Shown one piece after another: positions 5,223 through 32,624 of a DNA stretch of 64,000 nt. The notes beneath the pieces are model-generated. The model was not told where the DNA came from. It did not search any database and was given only the letters and a program-made list of their open reading frames with translations. Each line of letters begins with the position of its first letter. The stretch's first letter is position 1. The DNA comes from a virus (Duplodnaviria; Caudoviricetes): IMG/VR virus record IMGVR_UViG_3300006153_000003. One strand, written 5' to 3'. The position numbers and the translations under genes were made by a program.

Positions 5223-6440
5223 ATGAATATGAACGCTATCGGTATTGATGTTTCCAAACGTAAAAGCATGGTTTCCATCCTCCGCCCAGGCGGTGAAGTC
5301 GTGGCCAAACCTTTTGAAGTATCTCATTTATCCAAGGATCTCCGATCATTGATTCATCGGATCAGAGCCCTTGATGGAGAATCTCGTATCGTCATGGAGT
5401 GTACCGGACATTACTATGAGACCATTGCCCATGAGCTTGTCTCTGCCGGTCTGTTTGTCAGCGCTGTAAATCCACAGCTTATACGTCATTATCAGGACGA
5501 AGACAACTCCCTGCGGAAAGTAAAGTCCGACAAAGCAGATTCCCTTAAAATCGCACGCTATACACTTGACAGATGGTCAAAATTGAAACAATATGGTCTT
5601 ATGGATGAATTACGCAATCAATTAAAGACCATGAACCGCCAGTTTGGCTTCTACATGAAGCACAAGACTGCCATGAAAAACAATCTGATCGGCCTTCTTG
5701 ACCAAACTTATCCCGGTGTAAACACCTATTTTGACAGCCCTGCCCGCGAAGACGGAAGCCAGAAATGGGTTGACTTTGCGGACTGCTACTGGCATGCAGA
5801 CTGTGTCCGTAAGATGTCTGCGGACGCTTTTGTTGACCACTATCAAAAGTGGTGTCACCGCAAGAAGTACAACTTCAGCAAAACAAAAGCTGAAGAAATC
5901 TATGAAACAGCCAAGGAACTGGTTTCTGTACTTCCAAAAGATGTCTTTACCAAACGTATCATCAAACAGGCGGTTGAGCAGTTAAATACTGCATCCCGAA
6001 CTGTTGAACAGCTCCGTTCTCTAATGAACGAAACCGCAGCCAAGCTTCCAGAATACTCTGTCGTTATGGCGATGAAAGGCGTAGGCCCCTCCCTGGGTCC
6101 ACAGCTAATAGCAGAAATCGGAGATGTGGCACGCTTTACCCATCGGAACGCCATTACCGCATTTGCTGGTGTTGACCCAGGTGTAAATGAATCCGGGGAT
6201 TACTCTCAAAAAAGTGTCCATGCATCAAAACATGGTTCCCCCGCGCTCCGTAAGACCCTATTTCAGGTCATGGACGTTCTAATTAAGACCAAGCCACAAG
6301 ATGACCCCGTGTATTTGTTCATGGACAAGAAACGTGCGCAAGGCAAGGCTTACTATGTCTACATGACAGCCGGGGCAAATAAGTTTCTCCGGATTTATTA
6401 CGGAAGAGTCAAAGAATATTTGGCTTCCCTTCCACAATAG
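5223..6440 (+). CDS. IS110-family DEDD transposase/recombinase
   Basis: GIDVSK, MECTG, KSDKAD (DEDD RuvC-like) and GVGP...AEIGD...FAGVDP...ESG C-terminal domain. Confidence 0.97.
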   Translation: MNMNAIGIDVSKRKSMVSILRPGGEVVAKPFEVSHLSKDLRSLIHRIRALDGESRIVMECTGHYYETIAHELVSAGLFVSAVNPQLIRHYQDEDNSLRKVKSDKADSLKIARYTLDRWSKLKQYGLMDELRNQLKTMNRQFGFYMKHKTAMKNNLIGLLDQTYPGVNTYFDSPAREDGSQKWVDFADCYWHADCVRKMSADAFVDHYQKWCHRKKYNFSKTKAEEIYETAKELVSVLPKDVFTKRIIKQAVEQLNTASRTVEQLRSLMNETAAKLPEYSVVMAMKGVGPSLGPQLIAEIGDVARFTHRNAITAFAGVDPGVNESGDYSQKSVHASKHGSPALRKTLFQVMDVLIKTKPQDDPVYLFMDKKRAQGKAYYVYMTAGANKFLRIYYGRVKEYLASLPQ

Positions 6441-20818: not shown

Positions 20819-23560
20819 TTGTTAGACAAGCAATATAATATGTATTCTGTAGATACTGGACATTTTTATAGCAATCATGAAAAATACTTACACAATATGA
20901 ATTGTAAATATCGTAAAGAACGTAATTATGTTCTGAACAAATTACCGGAAATCGAAAAAAAATTAATGCAATACGGATATACAGAGGATGATCTTAAGAA
21001 TCTTAAAAATGAAAAGATTGAAAAAATTGATATTATTGAGTCTTCTTATGATATGATTTCTAAATATTTACATTGGGTAAGATTAATTAAGCACAAAAGA
21101 AAAAAAGCGAAAGAATCAAAAGAGGAATTGCTTACTCTTCTATCAAATAAAGTCATTCAAAATGAATTAACAGATGGCAAAGATCATATTCGGATAATAA
21201 AAGAAGATAGTATAAATGATACAAATATTATTTCCGTTTTTGATTCATCACTTAGCAGAATTATTGGCATCAAGCAAGATGAATTAACAGAAGCTTTAAT
21301 AGTAGTCCAAGTATATTATTTTGATGTATTCAAAGATATTTCATTCTATGGTTTTAAATACAAAGGTAAAAAATATAAATATTTTACTTCTTCTGCAGGA
21401 CAAATTCGAAAAAAGAAAGCTGTATTTATTAAGGAATCTGTGTGGAATAAGATTGAAAAAAGTATCATGTGTGGTTTGACAATAGGAAAAATCAATTCAA
21501 AAGGAGGGAATAATGTTAATAAGCATTTAGCTTATATGGCTCTAACAAATTCCGCGACTGATGAGTGGAAAGAATTTAATATTGATAAGTCTATTGTTAT
21601 TGATGATTTTGAGACTAACGTATATGGTACTTTTGACTTCGTAGATGATGTTGACTATTCGATTACAAGAAAAACAGATTATGTTCCAATACCTCATACT
21701 GACGGAGCTGGCATGATACTACCCTCAATTTCTAAAAAAAATTTTATGTTTCGTGCCCCTTGGATTAAAGGATTGTTAGGTGTATTTGATTTTAAGAAGT
21801 TTGTAGAGATAAATAACTACTCTCCTATTATTACAGATATTTACGGAAAAAAATATGATATTATTAAAGAAGATATCCAAATTATCTTTACAAAATCCCA
21901 GTTTAAAATGTGGAAGTATTACGATTCCTGGGATGAGTACAAGGTATATTTTAAAAAGTATCAATGTGAAGCTGGTAAATGTAATATTGAAGAAGATAGA
22001 ATTAAGAATGCAAAGATAAATTATCAGATGCTTCAAACACTAACAAACATTACAGATGAGGAAATTGATTTGCTTACTCAGAAATCGTCTGAACGAATTA
22101 GTAATATCTGTAGTTCAAAAGAAACTATGATGGATATTCTTGGTATCACACCCTATAATACAAATATGTCTTCATTTCAAAAAGCGGTAAAATTGTATCC
22201 TGCCTTATTGAATGATACATATGCAAAAGATGTTATTCGAGAAGTGAAAAACAGTCTTCTTAAAAAGTACCGTAGTGGAAAACTTGAAGTAACTGGGAAA
22301 TATACATTTTTACTCCCTGATTTTTATGCAGCTTGTGAATATTGGTTTGGACACATTGATGAACCAAAAGGATTATTAGATGATAAAGAAGTATTTTGTT
22401 GGCTATTTAAACAGTATGATAAATTGGATTGTTTGAGAAGCCCACACTTATATAAAGAACATGCTATTAGATTCAACGTTGCTAATAAGGGTTATGGTGA
22501 ACGAGCAAAGCAAATAAAGGAATGGTTCATTACTAATGGAATTTATGCTAGTACCCATGATTTAATAAGTAAAATACTTATGTATGATGTTGATGGAGAT
22601 AAAAGTTTAGTAGTTGCTGACAAAACCTTTGTTAGAATTGCAGAGCGTAATATGAATGGCATTGTTCCGTTATACTACAATATGCGCAAGGCAGAACCAA
22701 CAGAATTAAACAATAAAAATATTTACGCTGGACTTAACGCTGCTTTTACCGGAGGAAACATCGGTATTTACAGTAATAATATATCCAAAATTTGGAATGA
22801 CGATGTATTTATAAATGGATCAGAAGAAGATAAACAAAAGGCTATTGATTGTGTAAAAAGATTATGTTGTCAAAATAACTTTGTGATTGATTATGCTAAA
22901 ACCTTATATAAGCCAGAATTTCCTCGTGATATTAATGAACAAATTTCTAAATTCACAAATGGAAAATTGCCTGCGTTCTTTAGATTTGCAAAAGATAAAG
23001 AAAAATCCCAGGTAAAAGATCGAAATCAGAGTTTTGTAAATAAAATTTATGATAGAATACCAAATAAACCAATTAATACTAGGGGTATGCACCTTGGTAA
23101 TATTGATTATAAAATGCTGATGGAGAATCCAGAAATTATTTGTACTAAAGAAGTATCTAATTTATATGATATGTTAAATAAACAATATAGATATATGATT
23201 AATATGAAGGATGAATACATCGATAACTTAAGATATGTAGCATGTAAAATCAGAGAAGAATTTGACGAGTTTGGATATTCTAGTGAAACTATTTCGGATA
23301 TGCTTGTTGAATACTTATATGGTAAAGGGAAACGCTACAAACAATTGTTATGGTTCTGTTATGGACAATATGTTGTGAATAATTTAGAAAAGAATATTAC
23401 AGGTAAAAAAGTCAAAATAATTCAATGTATTGATTGTGGTGAATGGATTGAAGTTGATTCAAAAGACAACAAAACTTGTAGATGTGAATTGTGTAAAACA
23501 ATTTATAAAAAGAACTATCATAAAGAATATATGAGAAATAAAAGAAGTTTGTTAAGTTAG
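20819..23560 (+). CDS. yonO: YonO-like single-subunit (two-barrel) DNA-dependent RNA polymerase
   Basis: 913 aa; HTDGAG, R.PWIKG, RSP, catalytic DVDGD, NFVIDYAKT; C-terminal zinc ribbon; SPbeta-like synteny. Confidence 0.9.
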   Translation: MLDKQYNMYSVDTGHFYSNHEKYLHNMNCKYRKERNYVLNKLPEIEKKLMQYGYTEDDLKNLKNEKIEKIDIIESSYDMISKYLHWVRLIKHKRKKAKESKEELLTLLSNKVIQNELTDGKDHIRIIKEDSINDTNIISVFDSSLSRIIGIKQDELTEALIVVQVYYFDVFKDISFYGFKYKGKKYKYFTSSAGQIRKKKAVFIKESVWNKIEKSIMCGLTIGKINSKGGNNVNKHLAYMALTNSATDEWKEFNIDKSIVIDDFETNVYGTFDFVDDVDYSITRKTDYVPIPHTDGAGMILPSISKKNFMFRAPWIKGLLGVFDFKKFVEINNYSPIITDIYGKKYDIIKEDIQIIFTKSQFKMWKYYDSWDEYKVYFKKYQCEAGKCNIEEDRIKNAKINYQMLQTLTNITDEEIDLLTQKSSERISNICSSKETMMDILGITPYNTNMSSFQKAVKLYPALLNDTYAKDVIREVKNSLLKKYRSGKLEVTGKYTFLLPDFYAACEYWFGHIDEPKGLLDDKEVFCWLFKQYDKLDCLRSPHLYKEHAIRFNVANKGYGERAKQIKEWFITNGIYASTHDLISKILMYDVDGDKSLVVADKTFVRIAERNMNGIVPLYYNMRKAEPTELNNKNIYAGLNAAFTGGNIGIYSNNISKIWNDDVFINGSEEDKQKAIDCVKRLCCQNNFVIDYAKTLYKPEFPRDINEQISKFTNGKLPAFFRFAKDKEKSQVKDRNQSFVNKIYDRIPNKPINTRGMHLGNIDYKMLMENPEIICTKEVSNLYDMLNKQYRYMINMKDEYIDNLRYVACKIREEFDEFGYSSETISDMLVEYLYGKGKRYKQLLWFCYGQYVVNNLEKNITGKKVKIIQCIDCGEWIEVDSKDNKTCRCELCKTIYKKNYHKEYMRNKRSLLS

Positions 23561-23772
23561 CAAATGTTTTTGAAATAGTTCGTAAATAACGAATGAATAA
23601 TGAATATGAAAAATAAAATAATCCGTAAATAACGTATTTTCTTTTGTGTATATATAGGAAAGACATATCGTTAAATAACTAAATGTACAAATATTGTACA
23701 ATGTTATCTTTTACAAAATAAGATATGTTATCATAATCGAATTCGGAAAAAGATTGGAGGTAGGCTGAACAT

Positions 23773-24078
23773 TTGATTATTACACAAGACTCCTTAATAA
23801 AACAAATAGCAGATAAAGAAGATATTAATGTGGCAACGGTTCGAAATATATTTAAATCAGCAGAAGATATTATTTTTGACCACTTATCTTCTACTACTCC
23901 ATCTGAAAATATAATTATAAAAATATTGAATGGAATTAGTTTAGAAAGAAAATACATACCTAAGAGGATATATACTAAAGGTATGTTTAAAAACATTGAT
24001 TGTCCAGAACATGTAAATATAAAAGTCAACTCATCTACATATTATACAAGAAGAATTAATGACAAATTGTTTTCATAA
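23773..24078 (+). CDS. HU/IHF-like DNA-binding protein (divergent)
   Basis: TQDSLIKQIADKEDINVATVRNIF helix pattern plus beta arm. Confidence 0.65.
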   Translation: MIITQDSLIKQIADKEDINVATVRNIFKSAEDIIFDHLSSTTPSENIIIKILNGISLERKYIPKRIYTKGMFKNIDCPEHVNIKVNSSTYYTRRINDKLFS

Positions 24079-24130
24079 TAAAAGTCAAAATCCCCATTGG
24101 ATAAAACCAATGGGTACATAAAAATACAAT

Positions 24131-24758
24131 AATGAATATTTTCTCGTATTTTCAAATAACTCAGTGAAGAATGGTTTAGTCACCATGCTGAGAATATACG
24201 GATGCTGCCAAATTAATTCTTGGGATACTTAGAATGGATTTGGTCCGAAATATTGCGAAATATATTAGGATAAAAGATAAAATCTCAAAAGCAAGTATAT
24301 GTACTGAGAGTAAACGTAGTAAAATGCTGTCGTCTGGTCGCTGATATAATAGAGAGCTGCGCTGCAGTGCACAACCCTGATGCCTATAGCCTGATAACCT
24401 ATAGGAATTGAGTAAGTAAGGGAAATATCACACCAAGTCAGTTTGTCGTGAGGATTCAGAAATGAATCGTATAAGACCAGTTGGACGAACAAGTAGCCTA
24501 AGACAAGCACATTAATGAATCTGTATTTGTTATATTAGCAAGTAAAACAAATATTATAAAAGAAAACATACTTCTGAATGATAGGTGAACGTTATTCGTA
24601 ACCAATCGAATACACACGGAGACAGATGTATTTCTGTTGGGTAAGAAGTTTATGGTCGACGGGTCATAGACTCAGACTTATCTAGGTGTTTGCATAATAT
24701 TATTGCGTTTACGGAGGCAACCTGAAGGGGTATTTGAAAATACGAGAAAGTATTCATT
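24131..24758 (+). ncRNA. large structured ncRNA (ROOL/GOLLD-like)
   Basis: 28-bp closing helix 24131-24158/24731-24758 (single G-U on + strand); many internal hairpins; no credible ORF; directly upstream of tRNAs. Confidence 0.7.
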
Positions 24759-24824
24759 CTATTTTTCATTTTTTCTCATATGGGTGGCGGTGCTACTGTT
24801 CTGGTAGTATCGTCATCTGTTCTT

Positions 24825-24897
24825 GTGTCTATAACTCAATTGGTAGAGTAATCGGCTTTTAACCGATAGGTTTTGGGTTCAAGTCCCAATAGGCACA
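24825..24897 (+). tRNA. tRNA-Lys(TTT)
   Basis: Cloverleaf: GTGTCTA/TAGGCAC acceptor, ATCGG-CTTTTAA-CCGAT, TTCAAGT T-loop. Confidence 0.93.
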
Positions 24898-24899
24898 TT

Positions 24900-24979
24900 G
24901 CTGGCGGGTGGAACGGATATATAAACCATACCAGGCTCATACCCTGCGTGATACTCAGTTCGACTCTGGGGCTTCAGCA
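24900..24979 (+). tRNA. degenerate tRNA(CAT), Met/Ile2-like, possibly pseudo
   Basis: CAGG-CTCATAC-CCTG anticodon arm and good T arm; mismatched acceptor and irregular D arm. Confidence 0.5.
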
Positions 24980-25178
24980 ATTTTGTGAAGAGTTACAATT
25001 CTGTAGCTCTTTTTTTGTTATTTCATATAGGGTGATTACTACCCTGTCGTTTTGTGAAATTTTTATGCTTCATAAAATTTCTCCTTACTTGGGGTGATTG
25101 TTGCAGCAGTCACTCTATATGAAATAACAAAAGCGTTATCTGCAAATAACGATTAATAAAGGAGAGACAAAAAGTTAT

Positions 25179-26045
25179 ATGGTTAAAAAATTTACGAAAC
25201 GACAACTACTAGTTCAATGTGGATTTACCGCAGAAGATACTCAAATTATTCTTGATTACCAAAAGAAACTTCCAATATTATTAGAAGATAATGATACTTG
25301 GATAAACGCAAAAGATTTATGGGAACAATTGAAAGTAAAAGACAAATATACAGATTGGATTAAAACCCAGATAAAAACTTTTGAATTAATAGAAAATATT
25401 AGTTATATGACGAATTCGGTTCAAACCGAAATCGCAAATAATGGTTCAAAAAAAATAACAGAATATCAGATTAAGGTAGAAACCGCTAAAAGTATTACTT
25501 TGGTTATAGGATATAAAGGTGGTAATATATCTAAAGAATTAAAGGAAAATAGCAAACTCGCTCATAAGTATTTTATTCTTATGGAAAAAGCAGTAAAAAG
25601 AAACATCGAATGGGAACTAATCCGTTATCCTCTCCGTGAAGGTTACAAGAAAATGCAGAACGCATTAAATCAATATATGAATCGTATAGTTCAGAGAAAT
25701 GCTGATGATTGGGATTATAGTATGGAGGCAGATGCACTTAATATAATTGCAACTGGTTTTCCTGCAAAAGAAATTAGATTGTTTGTTGGATGTAAAGATA
25801 ATATTACAAGAGATAGTTTGACAGCTACATATAATGAATATTTAATGAAACTCCAAGAATTAAATATTATATATCTTGGTATGAATATGAATCGCTATGA
25901 ACGCTATAAAATGCTTAAACAATCTTTTGATATTTTGTTTCCAAATGCAATACCAATTAAAGATGATATTGATATTAACAAGATTCAAGCATATAAACAG
26001 AAATTATTAGATGAAACAAAAGAGAAAGTTCAAAGGGCAGCTTAA
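25179..26045 (+). CDS. AntA/AntB-type antirepressor domain protein
   Basis: INAKDLWEQLKVKDKYTDWIK...EYQIKVETAK...HKYFILMEK. Confidence 0.75.
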   Translation: MVKKFTKRQLLVQCGFTAEDTQIILDYQKKLPILLEDNDTWINAKDLWEQLKVKDKYTDWIKTQIKTFELIENISYMTNSVQTEIANNGSKKITEYQIKVETAKSITLVIGYKGGNISKELKENSKLAHKYFILMEKAVKRNIEWELIRYPLREGYKKMQNALNQYMNRIVQRNADDWDYSMEADALNIIATGFPAKEIRLFVGCKDNITRDSLTATYNEYLMKLQELNIIYLGMNMNRYERYKMLKQSFDILFPNAIPIKDDIDINKIQAYKQKLLDETKEKVQRAA

Positions 26046-26069
26046 TTACTGCCCTACTTTATATACTAT

Positions 26070-26142
26070 CGCAGATTATGTTGGAGTGGTTCCACACATG
26101 GCTCATAACCATGGTACACGAGTTCGAATCTCGTATCTGCAA
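26070..26142 (+). tRNA. tRNA-Met(CAT), initiator-like
   Basis: C1:A72 mismatch, CATGG-CTCATAA-CCATG, ACGAG-TTCGAAT-CTCGT; atypical D arm. Confidence 0.75.
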
Positions 26143-26211
26143 TTGTTTTGTCTGTTTAGTATAAACAGTCCTCCGTAGCCAGGCTCTTCGTTAACAGTCC
26201 GATATTATCTT

Positions 26212-26284
26212 TGGCATATAGCTCAGTTGGTAGAGCACTTGTCTGTTAAACAAGATGTCACAGGTTCGATCCCTGTTGTGCCAG
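26212..26284 (+). tRNA. tRNA-Asn(GTT)
   Basis: Canonical cloverleaf, CTTGT-CTGTTAA-ACAAG. Confidence 0.93.
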
Positions 26285-26331
26285 CTACTCTCCTACCTGG
26301 GGAGAATTTAGATGAAAGCGAGTGAAATACA

Positions 26332-26502
26332 ATAGTTAAGATTTCAAAGAAAGAAATGCAGTATTTAGTAAGTAAAGGAATACGTTTTGGCGAAAATGGG
26401 ATCAGCCATACTACAGCCAGACATCGGCGAAATTATTGGTGTACTGAGAATAAGAAATGTATGTCATTACTAAATGAGTATCGTAAGAGAGTTACTAAGT
26501 AA
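26332..26502 (+). CDS. small basic protein, probable ATA start
   Basis: Read by hand: (M)VKISKKEMQYLVSKGIRFGENG...; RBS-like GAGTG 7 nt upstream. Confidence 0.55.
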   Translation: MVKISKKEMQYLVSKGIRFGENGISHTTARHRRNYWCTENKKCMSLLNEYRKRVTK

Positions 26503-26511
26503 TATTTTCTC

Positions 26512-26811
26512 ATGAAAAGAATAATGTATAAAGGTTTTTGTATTGACAAAACAAAAACCGGATACCGTATTTCAAGACAATCTGACTCCTCTATTCATAC
26601 ACATCTGCGAAATTTATCTCCTAGTTACAAAATGATTGAGAATATTGTAAGGGAACGTATACCGAAGAGATGTGCTTTGTATTATATTCAATCTCATATA
26701 CGTTTGGCAGATGATGGTGAATACAGAAGAAAATTACAGAATTATTACAACGTAAAAGTAAATAAAGGGGAAAAGCAAGCTTACTACAATCCTAGTAAAA
26801 AACGATTTTAA
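26512..26811 (+). CDS. hypothetical phage protein
   Basis: 99-aa ORF. Confidence 0.7.
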   Translation: MKRIMYKGFCIDKTKTGYRISRQSDSSIHTHLRNLSPSYKMIENIVRERIPKRCALYYIQSHIRLADDGEYRRKLQNYYNVKVNKGEKQAYYNPSKKRF

Positions 26812-26831
26812 AAAAGAAAGGAATATTACAT

Positions 26832-27044
26832 ATGGCTAATTTTTCATATAAGAGAACCGAAACGACTACATTAAAAGCTGCAGGAGTTATTGATAGTGAC
26901 AGAATGGTCATTGAAGTCAATGGGGAAGAGAAAAAATTGTCTACTCTCCTATCTGATTTTAACGGCGGTGAAATTGAAATTAATATTAAGGTAAAAAGTG
27001 AGGAAGAACTTGATCCACCAGAATCCTCAGATGAAGAAGATTAA
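26832..27044 (+). CDS. YonK-like small protein
   Basis: Size, LKAAGVID...LLSDFNGGEIEINIK pattern, position before YonJ-like gene. Confidence 0.6.
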   Translation: MANFSYKRTETTTLKAAGVIDSDRMVIEVNGEEKKLSTLLSDFNGGEIEINIKVKSEEELDPPESSDEED

Positions 27045-27058
27045 TGATAGGAAAGTAG

Positions 27059-28270
27059 GTGACTACTTTGTTTGATACTACGAAGAAAGAAACCGAGAAC
27101 GAATACCAATACTTATGGAGATTGGGGCAGGCTAAAGATTCTGGGTTATTGGATATGGACTGGAACGGTATCTCCGATCTTATGAATAGGTATTTTGGCG
27201 ATCCAGACAAACCATTTTCTGAAGCGGCCTGGCGTAAGCCTTACAGTTCAGCTAAGAAATTTATGGAAGCGAAAGTTTTTAGAAAATTGGATGGAGAAGA
27301 ATATTCCAAAGAAATACAAGTTCAAAAACAAGAACTTGAGAAAGAGCGTATAAAAGTTCGTGATGAAAGAAATGAATTGCGCAGAATTATCCGTGAAGAA
27401 GCCCGGAAGGAAAGTTATAAAGAACAACTTCTTAGGAGTGTTTCTGAATACCAGTGCTCTCCTCTGTCTTATGACGAATCCAAACAATTCACGGGAATTT
27501 TAAAGACAGACAATGATTTACTGATCTCATTTTTTGATATTCATGCCGGTATAGAGATCTGTAATTTTTGGAACGAATTCAATGAAAACATTTTGAAAGA
27601 ACGAATCAATCATTATTTAGATCGAATTTTTGAAATTCAGTTACGTCATGGTTCTGAGAATGCATACGTCGTTCTAAGTGAATTGACATCCGGGTTTATC
27701 CACCCTACGCTGCGAATTGAAAACAATCAGGATATGATTGAACAGTTTTTATGTGTGACGAATTACATATCTGAATTTTTATCTGAACTGAGTTATCATT
27801 TCAATAATGTCTATGTGCATATCGCGCCTGGGAATCACGGGAGGTTATCCCCTAAAAAAGAAGACAATATTACAAATGAGAATATGGATAATTTGGTATT
27901 ACCATTTTTAGAGGCAAAATTGCAGAATTTTAATAATGTAAAATGTTATAAGAATACTGTAGAGCAGTCTATTGCGATATTTAATATTCGTAATTCTAAA
28001 GTGTTTAGTTCTCATGGTGATAAAGAGAACATGCAGAATGCAATTGAGAAAATGACATTATTTGTCGGAATCAAACCGGATATTTATTTAACTGGACATC
28101 GACATTTTAATTCAATGAGTACAGTATATGATTCTAAAGTTATACAAGCCGGTTGTCTGTCGGGACCAGATACGTATTGTATAGATCATAGACTTAGAAA
28201 CCGTCCTGAGCAAGTAGTTGTTGTTATCAACAATAATGGTTTGGATTGTCTATACGATGTGAAATTTTAA
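27059..28270 (+). CDS. calcineurin-like metallophosphoesterase (YonJ-like)
   Basis: DIH, GNHG, HGD and GHRH motifs; N-terminal coiled coil. Confidence 0.85.
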   Translation: MTTLFDTTKKETENEYQYLWRLGQAKDSGLLDMDWNGISDLMNRYFGDPDKPFSEAAWRKPYSSAKKFMEAKVFRKLDGEEYSKEIQVQKQELEKERIKVRDERNELRRIIREEARKESYKEQLLRSVSEYQCSPLSYDESKQFTGILKTDNDLLISFFDIHAGIEICNFWNEFNENILKERINHYLDRIFEIQLRHGSENAYVVLSELTSGFIHPTLRIENNQDMIEQFLCVTNYISEFLSELSYHFNNVYVHIAPGNHGRLSPKKEDNITNENMDNLVLPFLEAKLQNFNNVKCYKNTVEQSIAIFNIRNSKVFSSHGDKENMQNAIEKMTLFVGIKPDIYLTGHRHFNSMSTVYDSKVIQAGCLSGPDTYCIDHRLRNRPEQVVVVINNNGLDCLYDVKF

Positions 28271-28501
28271 TGTATAGACTATATCCCTGAATAACAAAGA
28301 AAACAGAGAGTATCGGTTACACGGCTATCCGATTAATAAAGCGCCGAGAGATGAGAGTGGATTGACTGTCACTGGCTAAAAATAACAGTTATCGCAACTA
28401 CTCAAATGCGGTTTTATAGAATTGACAAGGTAGAGCAGGTATGGATGACCTGTTTTTATATTTAAAAAATAAAAAAAAAGAATTAAAAAAGGAGCAAAAA
28501 T

Positions 28502-28798
28502 ATGAATAAAGCTATGAATAAAGCAGAATTAATTGACCAGGTATCAAAGAGGACAGATATGACCAAGAAGGATGTTGAAAAGGTACTGGGTACTTTTACG
28601 GATGTTGTGACTGAGACATTGGTTGCTGGTGATAAAGTAAGCATCGTAGGTTTTGGAACATTTGAGACGGTTGAACGCGCTGCTAGAACTGCTAGAAATC
28701 CACGCACTGGTGAGACTGTGGAAGTTGGACCTTCTAAGGCACCTAAGTTTAAGGCTGGGAAGAATTTGAAGGAAGCTGTAAAAACTCAGGCGAGATAG
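28502..28798 (+). CDS. hup: HU family DNA-binding protein
   Basis: MNKAELI...GFGTFE..ERAARTARNPRTGE...PKFKAGKNLKEAV. Confidence 0.96.
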   Translation: MNKAMNKAELIDQVSKRTDMTKKDVEKVLGTFTDVVTETLVAGDKVSIVGFGTFETVERAARTARNPRTGETVEVGPSKAPKFKAGKNLKEAVKTQAR

Positions 28799-28811
28799 GA
28801 GTAAAAAATAA

Positions 28812-29390
28812 ATGAAGCGATTAACATATACAGATTATGAAGAGTTTATTTATGATGCTACAGAAGTTTTAGAAACTTTGGATGCAGAAAATCCAAGTAT
28901 TGCATTTATCGCAAAGTATACAGAAGCTAACGAAATTGTCAAAACATTAGTAAGTATGGATTATGATGTTGTTTCTATAGATTTGCATAAAGAAGGATTT
29001 GAAAACTATTTTGACGAATATATTATCAAATTAAATTCCTGTGGCATTTGGTGTTACAAATTTAAAACTAAGAATACTAAAAATAGTTATCTTCAATATG
29101 AACCATCTGTTACATACGTCATGGATAATTGCTGCTCTAAGGTACTTAAATATTGTGGATCTGATTTTGTATATGAAGTCTGTGTCGGTGAAGAAAATGA
29201 TGAAGATAGTGCTGTAGAATCTACTCGTATAGATATTATAAGGAATGATATAGGTACTCCAATCGGTTTTACCAAAAGCTGGATTTTTACTAAAGATGGC
29301 ATGAGTTCTTATTCGTCATATACCCATCATAATGATGATGTGGATAAATTGAGAGAAATTGCTGAGAATTTTGGAGTTGATTTGGATTAG
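28812..29390 (+). CDS. hypothetical phage protein
   Basis: 192-aa ORF with GGAG RBS. Confidence 0.8.
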   Translation: MKRLTYTDYEEFIYDATEVLETLDAENPSIAFIAKYTEANEIVKTLVSMDYDVVSIDLHKEGFENYFDEYIIKLNSCGIWCYKFKTKNTKNSYLQYEPSVTYVMDNCCSKVLKYCGSDFVYEVCVGEENDEDSAVESTRIDIIRNDIGTPIGFTKSWIFTKDGMSSYSSYTHHNDDVDKLREIAENFGVDLD

Positions 29391-29540
29391 TATCTGATAC
29401 TTAATCAGAGTTTATAAATGTAGGACTTGCATTCTGAAAAATTGGATGTAGGCTCTTTTAGAGATATGGTATTGGTGAAAGTGAATACCCTACCAGTGAT
29501 GAGACTGGTTAATCATAGAACGGAAGGAAGTGAACATTTT

Positions 29541-30578
29541 ATGGGAAACGGAAGAAAAACTGTTTACAATAATATTTCCTCACCAGAAAAATTAGCAAAG
29601 GTAAATCCTGAGAATATTCAGTTAGGAAACGATTTCCTTGAATATCTCACTTCTATTGATAGGAGCAAATCTACAGTAGATGCATACCGTAACGATTTAA
29701 ATATCTTTTGGTGTTGGTGCTTGGAATTTAATAATAATAAATTCTTCGTTGATTTATCAAAACGGGAGATTGTAAAATATCAAAATTACTGTTTAAATAC
29801 ACTCGGATGGAGTCCTGCCAGGATGCGAAGGGTTAAATCTACTCTGTCTTCACTATCAAATTATATAGAATCTATGTTAGACGATGAATTTGATTTTAGA
29901 CCAATAATTCGTAAAATTGAAAATCCTGCTGCTTGTACAGTTAGAGAAAAAACGATCCTTGAAGAAGAGCAACTACAAAAATTATTAAATGTTCTTGTTG
30001 AAAAAGAACAATTTGATAAAGCATGTATGCTTTCTTTGGCAATGAATAATGGTCGCCGTAAGGCCGAACTTCCAAGAATGAAAGTTTCATATTTTACAGA
30101 AGATAATGTTATATACGGATCATTGTATAAATCTCCTGAGACTGTAACAACAAAAGGTCGTGGATCAAGAGGAAAACAATTAACAATTTATACTCTTAAA
30201 AATGGGTTTCAAAAATATCTGGATTTATGGCTAAATTACAGAAAAGAAAATAATATTACATCTGAATGGCTCATACCTAAAAAAGAAAATGGAGTTTATA
30301 TAGATGAACAAGTTCCTATCACTACAATGGATAGTTGGGCAGAAACATTTTCTAGGATTTTAGGCGTTCCTTTTTACTGGCATAGTCTCAGGCACTTCTT
30401 TACAACAAAATTATCTGAATCAAATATTCCAGATGGTGTTATTCAAGATATTGTTGGATGGGATTCTGCAGATATGTGTAGATTATATTGTGATACTCCT
30501 ACCGATGCTAAATTAGAAAAGTATTTTGGAGAAGAAGGTATTAAGAGTATAGAACAAAATACATTATCAAATTTGTAG
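29541..30578 (+). CDS. tyrosine recombinase
   Basis: SAM-like N-terminus, GRRKAEL (R), KG, HSLRH, VGW, Y nucleophile (MCRLY); RBS favours ATG 29541. Confidence 0.92.
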   Translation: MGNGRKTVYNNISSPEKLAKVNPENIQLGNDFLEYLTSIDRSKSTVDAYRNDLNIFWCWCLEFNNNKFFVDLSKREIVKYQNYCLNTLGWSPARMRRVKSTLSSLSNYIESMLDDEFDFRPIIRKIENPAACTVREKTILEEEQLQKLLNVLVEKEQFDKACMLSLAMNNGRRKAELPRMKVSYFTEDNVIYGSLYKSPETVTTKGRGSRGKQLTIYTLKNGFQKYLDLWLNYRKENNITSEWLIPKKENGVYIDEQVPITTMDSWAETFSRILGVPFYWHSLRHFFTTKLSESNIPDGVIQDIVGWDSADMCRLYCDTPTDAKLEKYFGEEGIKSIEQNTLSNL

Positions 30579-30586
30579 GAGAAATT

Positions 30587-31618
30587 ATGAGTATCGGAAT
30601 TTATATGATAAAAAATTTGTCTAATAATAAAGTATATATTGGACAAAGTATAGATATAAAAAGACGGTGGAATGATCATAAAATGAAGTTGAAAAATAAT
30701 ACTCATTATAATGAGCATTTACAAAAATCATACAATAAATACGGTGAAAAATATTTTCAATATGTTATTTTAAGCAAAACCACAAAAGAAAAATTAAATG
30801 AATTAGAAGCATATTATATTCAAAAATACCAATCATACAATCCTAAATATGGATATAATCAAACATTTGGTGGAGATTTCAATATTATTTTTACAAAAGA
30901 TATAATTAATAAAATGCGCAAATCTCACGAATATGAATTTGTGCCAATCTTACAGTATTCATTAGATAAAAAACTAATTGCACGATTTAATTCCTTAAGC
31001 GAAGCAAGCCGTTCAGTTAAGGGTACCCCTTCTGGAATAAGAAATTGCGCAAATAAATTTTCATTAAATGTAGGTAAATGTAAGACTTACAAAGGATATA
31101 TTTGGATATATGAATATGAATCAGAAAGATTTGAACATATTGATATTGAAGAATATTTAACTCCAGAAACAAGTTTTCCTATTAATAAGTATGAATATCC
31201 AAGTGGGAAATTTGTGTGTACATATAAAACAATACTAGAAGCAGCAACTAATAACAAAATATCTATTGATGTGATAAGTATGTGTGTCAGAGAAGTTCAA
31301 AAACAAAGTAATGGTTTTACATATCGTAACGCAAACAACTTTACACAAGATACATTATGTATAAAACCAAAAGTACATAAAAAGAAAAGGCCTGTTATTG
31401 CATTTAATAAATCTGATAATACATTTGTTATGTATTTATATAATATGGAACAATTAAAAAAATTAGGTTTAGATAGTGGTCATATTTGTGAGTGCTGTAA
31501 AGGAAAACGAAAATCTTATAAAGGATACATATGGAAATATGCCGATGAACAATTTGCACAATACTTTGGTGAAGACGGAATTAAAAAGGTTGAAAAGAAA
31601 ACTCTTTCTGAGATTTGA
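30587..31618 (+). CDS. GIY-YIG homing endonuclease with NUMOD1-type repeats
   Basis: GIYMIKNLSNNKVYIGQS...RRW..H; repeated SLSEA...I..C...K.YKGYIW units. Confidence 0.92.
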   Translation: MSIGIYMIKNLSNNKVYIGQSIDIKRRWNDHKMKLKNNTHYNEHLQKSYNKYGEKYFQYVILSKTTKEKLNELEAYYIQKYQSYNPKYGYNQTFGGDFNIIFTKDIINKMRKSHEYEFVPILQYSLDKKLIARFNSLSEASRSVKGTPSGIRNCANKFSLNVGKCKTYKGYIWIYEYESERFEHIDIEEYLTPETSFPINKYEYPSGKFVCTYKTILEAATNNKISIDVISMCVREVQKQSNGFTYRNANNFTQDTLCIKPKVHKKKRPVIAFNKSDNTFVMYLYNMEQLKKLGLDSGHICECCKGKRKSYKGYIWKYADEQFAQYFGEDGIKKVEKKTLSEI

Positions 31619-31722
31619 TCAGATAAACCTCTAATTTCATCTGTCCCATATGATCTCAAACAACGCAATTTTTTATACATACTGTAACTTCGGAGAGTTT
31701 TCTACACTCTCCTTTTCTCTAT

Positions 31723-31812
31723 GGATGGAAGGTAACTATCGGATCTGTTACAACGGTCTGTAAAACCGTTCCCACGTGGTAAAGAGTGTTGGTTCGACTC
31801 CAACTCCATCCA
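31723..31812 (+). tRNA. tRNA-Tyr(GTA), atypical D arm
   Basis: GGATGGA/TCCATCC acceptor, ACGGT-CTGTAAA-ACCGT, long variable region, GTTGG-TTCGACT-CCAAC. Confidence 0.8.
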
Positions 31813-31854
31813 TTATTATAAATTCGATTATTCCAAAAGAAAGTAGGTGAATAC

Positions 31855-32151
31855 ATGACAAAAGACTTAGATATTATAGATCGGCAGTTAGAACTAGGTG
31901 ATGTGAAAGTTATAAGTAGAGATGGTGGTCGTATCGTCAAATTTATTGAACTACTCTTCTCCCCTACTACTAAGGCACAGTTCGCACCATCAAATAATAA
32001 TACATCAATAAGATTGAGCGTAAAAGATGTAGATCTTACACTACCACAGTTAGAATGTGATATGAGTAAGTCAACGCTGAGAGATCTTATTATAGGATTA
32101 AAATCTATTTACAATCAAATCGAAGATGAAGATGAAAAGGAAGGAGACTAA
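31855..32151 (+). CDS. hypothetical phage protein
   Basis: ORF with AGGTG RBS. Confidence 0.75.
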   Translation: MTKDLDIIDRQLELGDVKVISRDGGRIVKFIELLFSPTTKAQFAPSNNNTSIRLSVKDVDLTLPQLECDMSKSTLRDLIIGLKSIYNQIEDEDEKEGD

Positions 32152-32153
32152 AA

Positions 32154-32624
32154 ATGAACTTTTATGAAAAAATTGATATGAACGATAATGTTGTAAAATA
32201 TACACTTCGAGCGAAATACAATGAGGAATTAACAGATGAAGAAACTCTTGAGATTGAGTCTCTACACGATTATATTCATAAGATTAAGTTTACTGATATT
32301 GATTTTGTTTCAAATGTAAATCTTGTATCCGGTGCCCCAGCTGTTACGGAAGATAATATCAGCGAAGGTGTTGTCGAGGTTGACCTGGGGAAAATTGCTC
32401 CTAAAGAGTATATTCTGGATGAAAACCTTGAAATCACATTCTCCGTTGATGCAGGACGGGTCCCTGATGCAGAGCTGAACAGCGTTTTGACTACGAAGGC
32501 ACTTGTAGCTCAGGCAAAGGTAGCAGTATTCCAGTCTAAGATTAAAGAAGCAATCTTGGGTATTTTAGAAGAAATCCGTACTACTGATAATGATTTCGAA
32601 AAAGAGTCAGAGATTATTTTATAG
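32154..32624 (+). CDS. hypothetical phage protein
   Basis: ORF with AAGGAG RBS. Confidence 0.8.
   Translation: MNFYEKIDMNDNVVKYTLRAKYNEELTDEETLEIESLHDYIHKIKFTDIDFVSNVNLVSGAPAVTEDNISEGVVEVDLGKIAPKEYILDENLEITFSVDAGRVPDAELNSVLTTKALVAQAKVAVFQSKIKEAILGILEEIRTTDNDFEKESEIIL

Follow-up and report, generated by a model that had tools for sequence, protein, structure and literature searches.

The DNA analysed here, a stretch of 64,000 nucleotides that we call the window, is phage DNA and carries terminase, portal, integrase and exonuclease genes. A YonO-type single-chain two-barrel RNA polymerase is encoded at 20819-23560 (+). The protein is 913 aa long, matches Pfam RdRP and has the motif DVDGD at residue 590. 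It shares 46-47% identity with YonO of SPbeta over 84-86% of the protein and 50% identity with a protein of Clostridium phage D-1873. Its closest relatives, at up to 83% identity, are found in prophages of Lachnospiraceae genomes. The polymerase gene is followed by a gene for an HU-like small protein at 23773-24078 (+), which has the position of yonN in SPbeta. The HU assignment comes from a weak Pfam match to Bac_DNA_binding, with an E of 0.007 that is below the cutoff. An HU-like gene is kept behind the polymerase gene in 41 of 80 related loci. Beyond it lie a large structured RNA and a tRNA cluster, so that the setting given in a preliminary description of the locus, between the polymerase and HU genes and the tRNAs, is borne out.

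The structured RNA occupies 24131-24758 (+), and its ends are joined by a long helix, P1. A tRNA-Lys (UUU) gene at 24824-24898 (+) begins 65 nt past P1, and three more tRNAs are present within the 7 kb downstream of it. One nucleotide past tRNA-Lys is a tRNA-like gene of non-canonical form whose anticodon loop contains CAU (24900-24979, +). It was reported by ARAGORN at a relaxed threshold only and was called neither by default ARAGORN nor by Rfam. This gene has an aberrant D arm and one mismatch in the acceptor stem. It is kept in two related loci, L012 and L001, with compensatory changes in the T arm (CTCAG/CTGGG vs CACGG/CCGTG). Terminator prediction placed an intrinsic-terminator-like hairpin with a T run at 24987-25012 (+), and this hairpin probably ends a transcription unit that comprises the large RNA and the tRNAs. 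Further downstream are an anti-repressor-like gene, tRNA-Met, tRNA-Asn, a basic ORF of 99 aa without a family assignment (26512-26811, +), an SbcD-like exonuclease gene, and the integrase, terminase and portal genes. The exonuclease gene (27059-28270, +; phrog_284) has the position of yonJ in SPbeta and closes a conserved module. At 31722-31813 (+) there is a tRNA-Tyr (GUA) with a long variable arm, which Rfam reports only as a sub-threshold tRNA-Sec (35.2 bits against a gathering score of 47).

The large RNA belongs to the ROOL family. ROOL was defined in 2017 as an ornate RNA of ~581 nt that is found in phages and prophages, often beside tRNAs (Weinberg et al. 2017, PMC5737381). A cmscan search of the whole window with Rfam 15 matched 24136-24750 (+) to ROOL (RF03087) with 286.7 bits (gathering score 99.1) and an E of 1e-64. 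The match is not truncated and covers positions 1-574 of the 574 in the model. The GOLLD model gave no cmscan match, whether the cutoff was its gathering score or an E of 1, and a permissive Rfam scan of 23500-32500 (E up to 1) found no further large RNA. The preliminary description had read the RNA as ROOL or GOLLD, with the size favouring ROOL, and had proposed a cmscan search as a check; the full-length ROOL match settles that reading in favour of ROOL. All conserved ROOL blocks are found in the cmscan alignment, namely CAGUGAAGA, GGGAUAC, AAUAGA, CGUAUAA, AGUAGCC, UUCUGAAUGA..GGUGAA, AAGAAG, CUCAGAC and GAAG. The window contains 6-7 of the 7 probe motifs of ROOL, and most other phage ROOLs contain 3-6 of them. 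The match to the model is 615 nt long, inclusion of the extended P1 brings the length to 628 nt, and the structured RNA including the P1 extension spans ~24129-24760. Only short ORFs overlap the RNA. The longest, of 81 aa on the minus strand (24265-24510), has no Pfam match and is conserved in none of 10 relatives, in keeping with the earlier statement that the interior holds no credible ORF. We are highly confident that 24131-24758 (+) is an intact ROOL RNA gene and that the phage or prophage carrying it is tailed, SPbeta-like and from a host of the Lachnospiraceae type.

The secondary structure of the RNA was analysed by folding and by covariation. The 5' arm of P1 (24131-24158, +) is complementary to the 3' arm (24731-24758, +) over 28 nt, with U24139-G24750 as the lone exception. 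This pair is a wobble on the plus strand and an A-C mismatch on the minus strand. The ROOL RNA lies on the plus strand, and the wobble fits that strand only. In an inverted-repeat search, the P1 arms formed the longest inverted repeat of the region, and they lie within a 49-nt arm pair that is 78% complementary. P1 measures 26-28 bp and extends ~10 bp past the Rfam model in this sublineage. Interior helices are formed by CTCAG/CTGAG (24160-64/24188-92), CCTATAG/CTATAGG (24383-89/24399-405) and GATTCA/TGAATC (24453-58/24463-68), and a long-range helix by CTGGTC/GACCAG (24334-39/24475-80). The P1 pairing with its single G-U difference and these four helices had all been named in the preliminary description, and each of them stands; the four are part of the conserved structure described below. 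The folding energy of the 628-nt plus strand is -171.9 kcal/mol, compared with -135.8 +/- 6.3 for 20 dinucleotide shuffles (z = -5.7), and none of the 20 shuffles folded as well.

A scan of IMG/VR with the invariant block TTCTGAATGA..GGTGAA supplied relatives for the covariation analysis, and the candidates were screened by motif counts, blastn and nhmmer. The resulting set consists of the window and 10 relatives at 45-70% identity, and the 11 sequences were placed in a plain MAFFT alignment. The nearest relatives (L102, L123, L138, L139 and, from a metagenome, L285) are ~69-70% identical to the window's ROOL, L129 is 62% identical, and the remaining ones 45-56%. A metagenome scan with the loose pattern AACCCTGATGCCTNTNG returned mostly chance matches, and L285 was the only ROOL among the matches listed. 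Searches of the phage collection at the DNA level, using either ROOL by itself or ROOL plus 22 kb of context, gave no match.

On the unfitted MAFFT alignment of 11 sequences, RNAalifold predicted 138 pairs, 105 of which persist in one or more sequences despite a change of both partners. Direct projection of the Rfam structure line was tried and rejected, as it gave 24 non-canonical pairs, with register errors at 24594-24611, 24638-24685 and 24308-24327/24693-24714. In the refined structure, two small RNAalifold hairpins were exchanged for four Rfam helices set by best register. It contains 152 pairs in 26 helices with 91.5% of the cells paired, of which four helices were fitted to the alignment, so that their counts lean towards the structure, and the other 22 were unfitted. 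When partners were slid by 1-3 columns as a control, 38-46% of the cells were paired. Pairs changed on both sides number 116 of 152, against 32-41 in the slid controls, and none of 500 shuffles reached any of five measures for the 152-pair structure. In P1, 21 of 26 pairs are changed on both sides across the 11 sequences and 95.5% of the cells are paired. Covariation, which had also been proposed as a check, is thus abundant.

The RNA contains a variable A/U-rich linker at 24502-24573 (+), inside the stem 24496-24499/24583-24586. The linker is 78% A+T, its columns are unalignable and its length varies among relatives. A ROOL linker has been described and placed, disordered, inside the cage by cryo-EM (PMC12286853). 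By its sequence and place, the segment at 24502-24573 appears to correspond to this disordered linker of the solved structures. The linker is followed by the most conserved ROOL block, TTCTGAATGA..GGTGAA at 24574-24591 (+), which is invariant in all 11 aligned sequences. Within this block, UGAU (24579-24582) is a candidate for a 4-bp pairing with GUCA (24179-24182) in loop L2. The pairing is standard in 10-11 of the 11 sequences and has one covarying pair, and we infer that it may map to the inter-subunit bridge B1. Three pseudoknots of ROOL were predicted in 2017, and P10 and P13 were seen by cryo-EM. The covariance-model output shows none, and a pseudoknot scan of the unpaired columns, underpowered at 11 sequences, returned only short candidates of 3-4 bp with 1-2 covarying pairs. 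The sequence GUCGAC at 24655-24660 is palindromic in the window and not in its relatives.

These results bear on whether the gene is intact. The locus could be a ROOL-derived relic that has lost the ability to be transcribed or to assemble, and the closest phage relatives of the window are without ROOL. However, the window sequence has canonical bases at 149 of the 152 consensus pairs, the conserved blocks are all intact, and 20 other phage ROOLs score 216-382 bits, a range that takes in the 286.7 bits found here. Decay is thus very improbable. There is practically no room for GOLLD or for a new large ncRNA class with a superficial resemblance to ROOL, given a full-length covariance match at nearly three times the gathering score and the absence of other large-RNA families, including GOLLD, even at E up to 1. 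The fallback of the preliminary description, a new class if neither model matched, is therefore void. Since it matches the ROOL model and shows compensatory changes, the RNA at 24131-24758 is a further member of a known family and not a new RNA class.

ROOL recurs behind YonO-type polymerase genes in other phages. A polymerase profile of eight proteins, in which DxDxD is invariant, was searched against 47 ROOL-bearing IMG/VR records, which come from one exact-pattern scan and do not constitute a census. A YonO-like polymerase was found in 12 of the 47. In all 12 records that have both, ROOL lies downstream of the polymerase gene on the same strand, 0.26-2.4 kb away, and these twelve records are not phylogenetically independent. 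Among the 10 records with a fetched polymerase ORF, the gap between the stop codon and ROOL is 264-889 nt in seven and ~2.3-2.4 kb in three; it is 575 nt in the window. The polymerases, the window's included, fall into 8 groups with at most 53% mutual identity, all with DxDxD. ARAGORN found tRNA genes in 8 of 10 related ROOL loci. In the record G002, which contains one of the closest ROOL relatives, ROOL lies just downstream of a 922-aa protein with a Pfam RdRP match, which is 28% identical to the window polymerase by genome search and 25% by BLASTP. In G001, a 969-aa protein upstream of ROOL is 22% identical to the window polymerase and aligns through the catalytic loop.

The window and G002 share the order of polymerase, small gene, ROOL, ~100-aa ORF and SbcD-like exonuclease. 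The exonuclease of the window is 42% identical to the G002 gene found downstream of ROOL. The 99-aa ORF is 36% identical to a 102-aa ORF beside ROOL in G001, G002, G003 and G005, and its identity with an ORF of L025, a locus that has no ROOL, is 63%. The ~100-aa ORF was considered as a general partner of ROOL and rejected, as it was not found beside other ROOLs and is present in L025.

The similarity of ROOLs is decoupled from that of the polymerases. G001 and G002 have polymerases that are 21% identical and ROOLs that are 93.9% identical, whereas G001 and G034 have polymerases that are 82% identical and ROOLs that are 56% identical. In 8 kb of G001 and G002, which are two large phages, the sole similar DNA is a block of 1381 bp with 95.7% identity that includes ROOL, a spacer and the 102-aa ORF (L345 1548-2924 in G002 vs L346 1555-2933 in G001). 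This block looks like a mobile ROOL cassette. Its isolated position beside polymerases of 21% identity shows that ROOL cassettes have been exchanged into the same slot. The occurrence of eight polymerase lineages, together with cassette swapping, argues against simple inheritance of the linkage.

In the window's own phage lineage, ROOL is an accessory element. The comparison covered 80 loci with the window type of polymerase, including 26 at 70% or more polymerase identity. No ROOL was found within 6 kb of the polymerase in any of the 80 with single-sequence nhmmer and with a profile at E up to 10, and an Rfam search of the ten closest loci found no ROOL. The host genomes of relatives gave a weak negative result, with ROOL in none of 27 when the best 23 candidates per genome were scored; the search used on them recovered ROOL in 20 of 20 viral records known to carry it. 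Relatives without ROOL keep the HU gene, and L012 and L001 also keep a downstream hairpin (described below) with tRNA-Lys and the tRNA-like gene. The slot between the HU gene and this hairpin is empty in L021, L006 and L036, and it contains a 204-aa ORF and a ~500-nt spacer in L001 and L012. From the ROOL side, 35 of the 47 records are without a YonO-like polymerase; among the 13 records with a completeness of 90% or more, 11 are without it. With 0 of 80 polymerase loci carrying ROOL and at least 11 near-complete ROOL phages without the polymerase, any coupling of the two is neither necessary nor universal. In another polymerase locus, L002, from a Eubacterium MAG, a RAGATH-18 RNA (RF03064, 74.1 bits) was observed at 5876-5950 (+), ~50 nt upstream of the YonO-like gene.

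ROOL is flanked by two hairpins in the window. The first is an 8-bp GC-rich hairpin at 24093-24114 (+), CCCATTGG-ATAAAA-CCAATGGG, which lies 16 nt upstream of P1 and is terminator-like on the minus strand. Five ROOL lineages, including the window, have a GC-rich hairpin of 5-8 bp followed by an A-rich tract, 6-23 nt before P1. Besides the window, these hairpins were seen in L102, L123, L139, L129, L124 and L118; the lineages have hairpins of unrelated sequence, and in L105 and L116 a tRNA-Thr stands in place of the hairpin. The second hairpin, at 24780-24820 (+) between ROOL and tRNA-Lys, has 19 pairs and is terminator-like, with GGYGGTGCT in its 5' arm and a TTCT loop. It is a single-copy element of 15-19 bp, with the TTCT loop in most copies, a pyrimidine-rich tract before it and TGT.TCTT after it. 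Copies are present in L001 (~10549), L004 (~9412), L006 (~9216), L008 (~9498), L010 (~9300), L012 (~10454), L021 (~4954), L024 (~9463) and L036. Its conserved place is behind the HU gene and the polymerase gene, and substitutions in both arms look compensatory by eye. In relatives without ROOL, one copy lies behind the HU gene, directly so in some. The hairpin at 24780-24820 is an element of the phage backbone and not a part of ROOL. It is a candidate for a late promoter, a terminator or a processing element of YonO phages.

The gene order of SPbeta offers a parallel that may indicate how ROOL is expressed. In SPbeta, yonO and yonN are followed by an unannotated gap of 1.68 kb and then by yonK and yonJ. 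The head of the SPbeta late operon has an unannotated non-coding RNA downstream of a start site of YonO (Forrest et al. 2017, PMC5467207). This leader RNA and the window's ROOL have the same slot and strand, past yonO and yonN and before the homologues of yonK and yonJ, the latter an exonuclease gene. The SPbeta gap differs in that it has no ROOL match; its only Rfam match is a 66-nt DUF3800-VIII motif (RF03075), at L344 8174-8239 (+) with 47.5 bits against a gathering score of 40.2. Judged by position, the ROOL of the window occupies the late-start and leader-RNA slot of SPbeta.

We tentatively suggest, as a reading that is plausible and not probable, that ROOL is functionally coupled to YonO-type polymerases. 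It would be the leader of a polymerase-dependent late operon in the SPbeta slot, would be released together with tRNAs, and would exist as variants exchanged as cassettes. By synteny with SPbeta, transcription would start in the short gap that follows the polymerase gene and the HU gene, where the late genes begin, and the phage's YonO polymerase would carry it out; the chance of this step comes close to even. ROOL would then be a late RNA of the lytic cycle. The anatomy of the locus suggests a longer plus-strand transcript that would extend from ROOL across both tRNA-Lys and the tRNA-like gene and stop at the terminator at ~25012. ROOL could be freed from it by tRNA processing and by a cut at the long P1 or close to it, comparable to the cutting of rRNA stalks. 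As in the published structures (PMC12286853; PMC12990946), the RNA would fold flat and form a protein-free, hollow, homo-oligomeric cage, an octamer or a hexamer, with the linker inside.

The main rival is that host RNA polymerase makes ROOL early or constitutively, with ROOL forming the 3' portion of the transcript of the polymerase and HU genes or having a weak promoter to itself, and that the slot is simply permissive for insertion. This is a serious possibility that stays below an even chance. A sigma-70 scan of the plus strand found no promoter in 23737-25252, and the sole sigma-70-like site nearby on this strand (TTTACA-16-CATAAT, 23710-23737) lies ahead of the HU gene, as transcription of ROOL with the polymerase and HU genes would suggest. 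The P1 extension covaries to 24129, so the RNA start must be further upstream. The backbone hairpin at 24780-24820, a possible late promoter or terminator, lies downstream of ROOL. If it were the late promoter, ROOL would lie upstream of that promoter and share its transcription with the polymerase and HU genes. The hypervariable slot, with its 204-aa ORF and 500-nt spacer in L001 and L012 and its emptiness in L021 and L006, also fits permissive insertion. Furthermore, ROOL of L. salivarius reportedly reaches the abundance of 16S rRNA, in an account that does not mention phage induction (PMC12286853). Against transcription by the host enzyme from a neutral slot, the co-directional arrangement recurs behind polymerases of 8 lineages that share at most 53% identity, and exchange of ROOL variants has taken place at precisely this slot, which together exceed the neutral expectation. 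Moreover, the homologous gap in SPbeta holds a YonO start site and a leader RNA.

One more ROOL gene alone would be routine annotation. Atomic structures of ROOL became available in 2025, yet the RNA is without a known partner or a defined regulation, and its function is unknown despite the structures (PMC12286853; PMC12990946). The linkage to the polymerase gene is a testable lead on when ROOL is made and by which enzyme. It points to the one site in SPbeta at which late transcription by YonO is known to begin, and it makes SPbeta-like phages candidates for the genetic study of ROOL. If coupling to YonO is true, it would be the first defined producer, timing and genetic handle for ROOL. In the papers searched, the ROOL literature does not mention a position directly behind a YonO-type polymerase gene, and none pairs 'ROOL' with 'YonO'. 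The association is possibly unreported so far.

Three known systems can be compared with the window's RNA. In rRNA operons, long processing stalks flank 16S and 23S rRNA and are cut by RNase III, and tRNAs are part of the same precursor. Similarly, a near-perfect long helix joins the ends of the large RNA in the window, and tRNA genes and a terminator directly follow; the likeness to rRNA stalks is an analogy only. We know of no ROOL for which a cleavage site, a dependence on RNase III or a precursor has been shown. GOLLD is likewise a large ornate phage RNA that is found beside tRNAs and forms RNA-only cages. Its members are often longer than 800 nt. GOLLD differs in being unrelated in sequence and structure, and the window has no Rfam GOLLD match. 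The expression of GOLLD goes up during phage lysis (PMC12286853). ROOL itself assembles without protein into hollow cages, as an octamer for env-120 and E. faecalis and as a hexamer for L. salivarius, as reported in 2025 (PMC12286853). Cryo-EM structures of the cages are available for env-120 (9MDS), E. faecalis (9J3T) and L. salivarius (9J6Y) (PMC12990946). The window's ROOL differs from the family in its P1 of 26-28 bp, which reaches ~10 bp beyond the Rfam model, and its nearest relatives found are just ~70% identical to it. In other respects it resembles the family closely, with a full-length model match, a multi-junction architecture, the conserved blocks, an internal variable linker, a length of 615-628 nt against a family mean of 581, and a phage location beside tRNAs.
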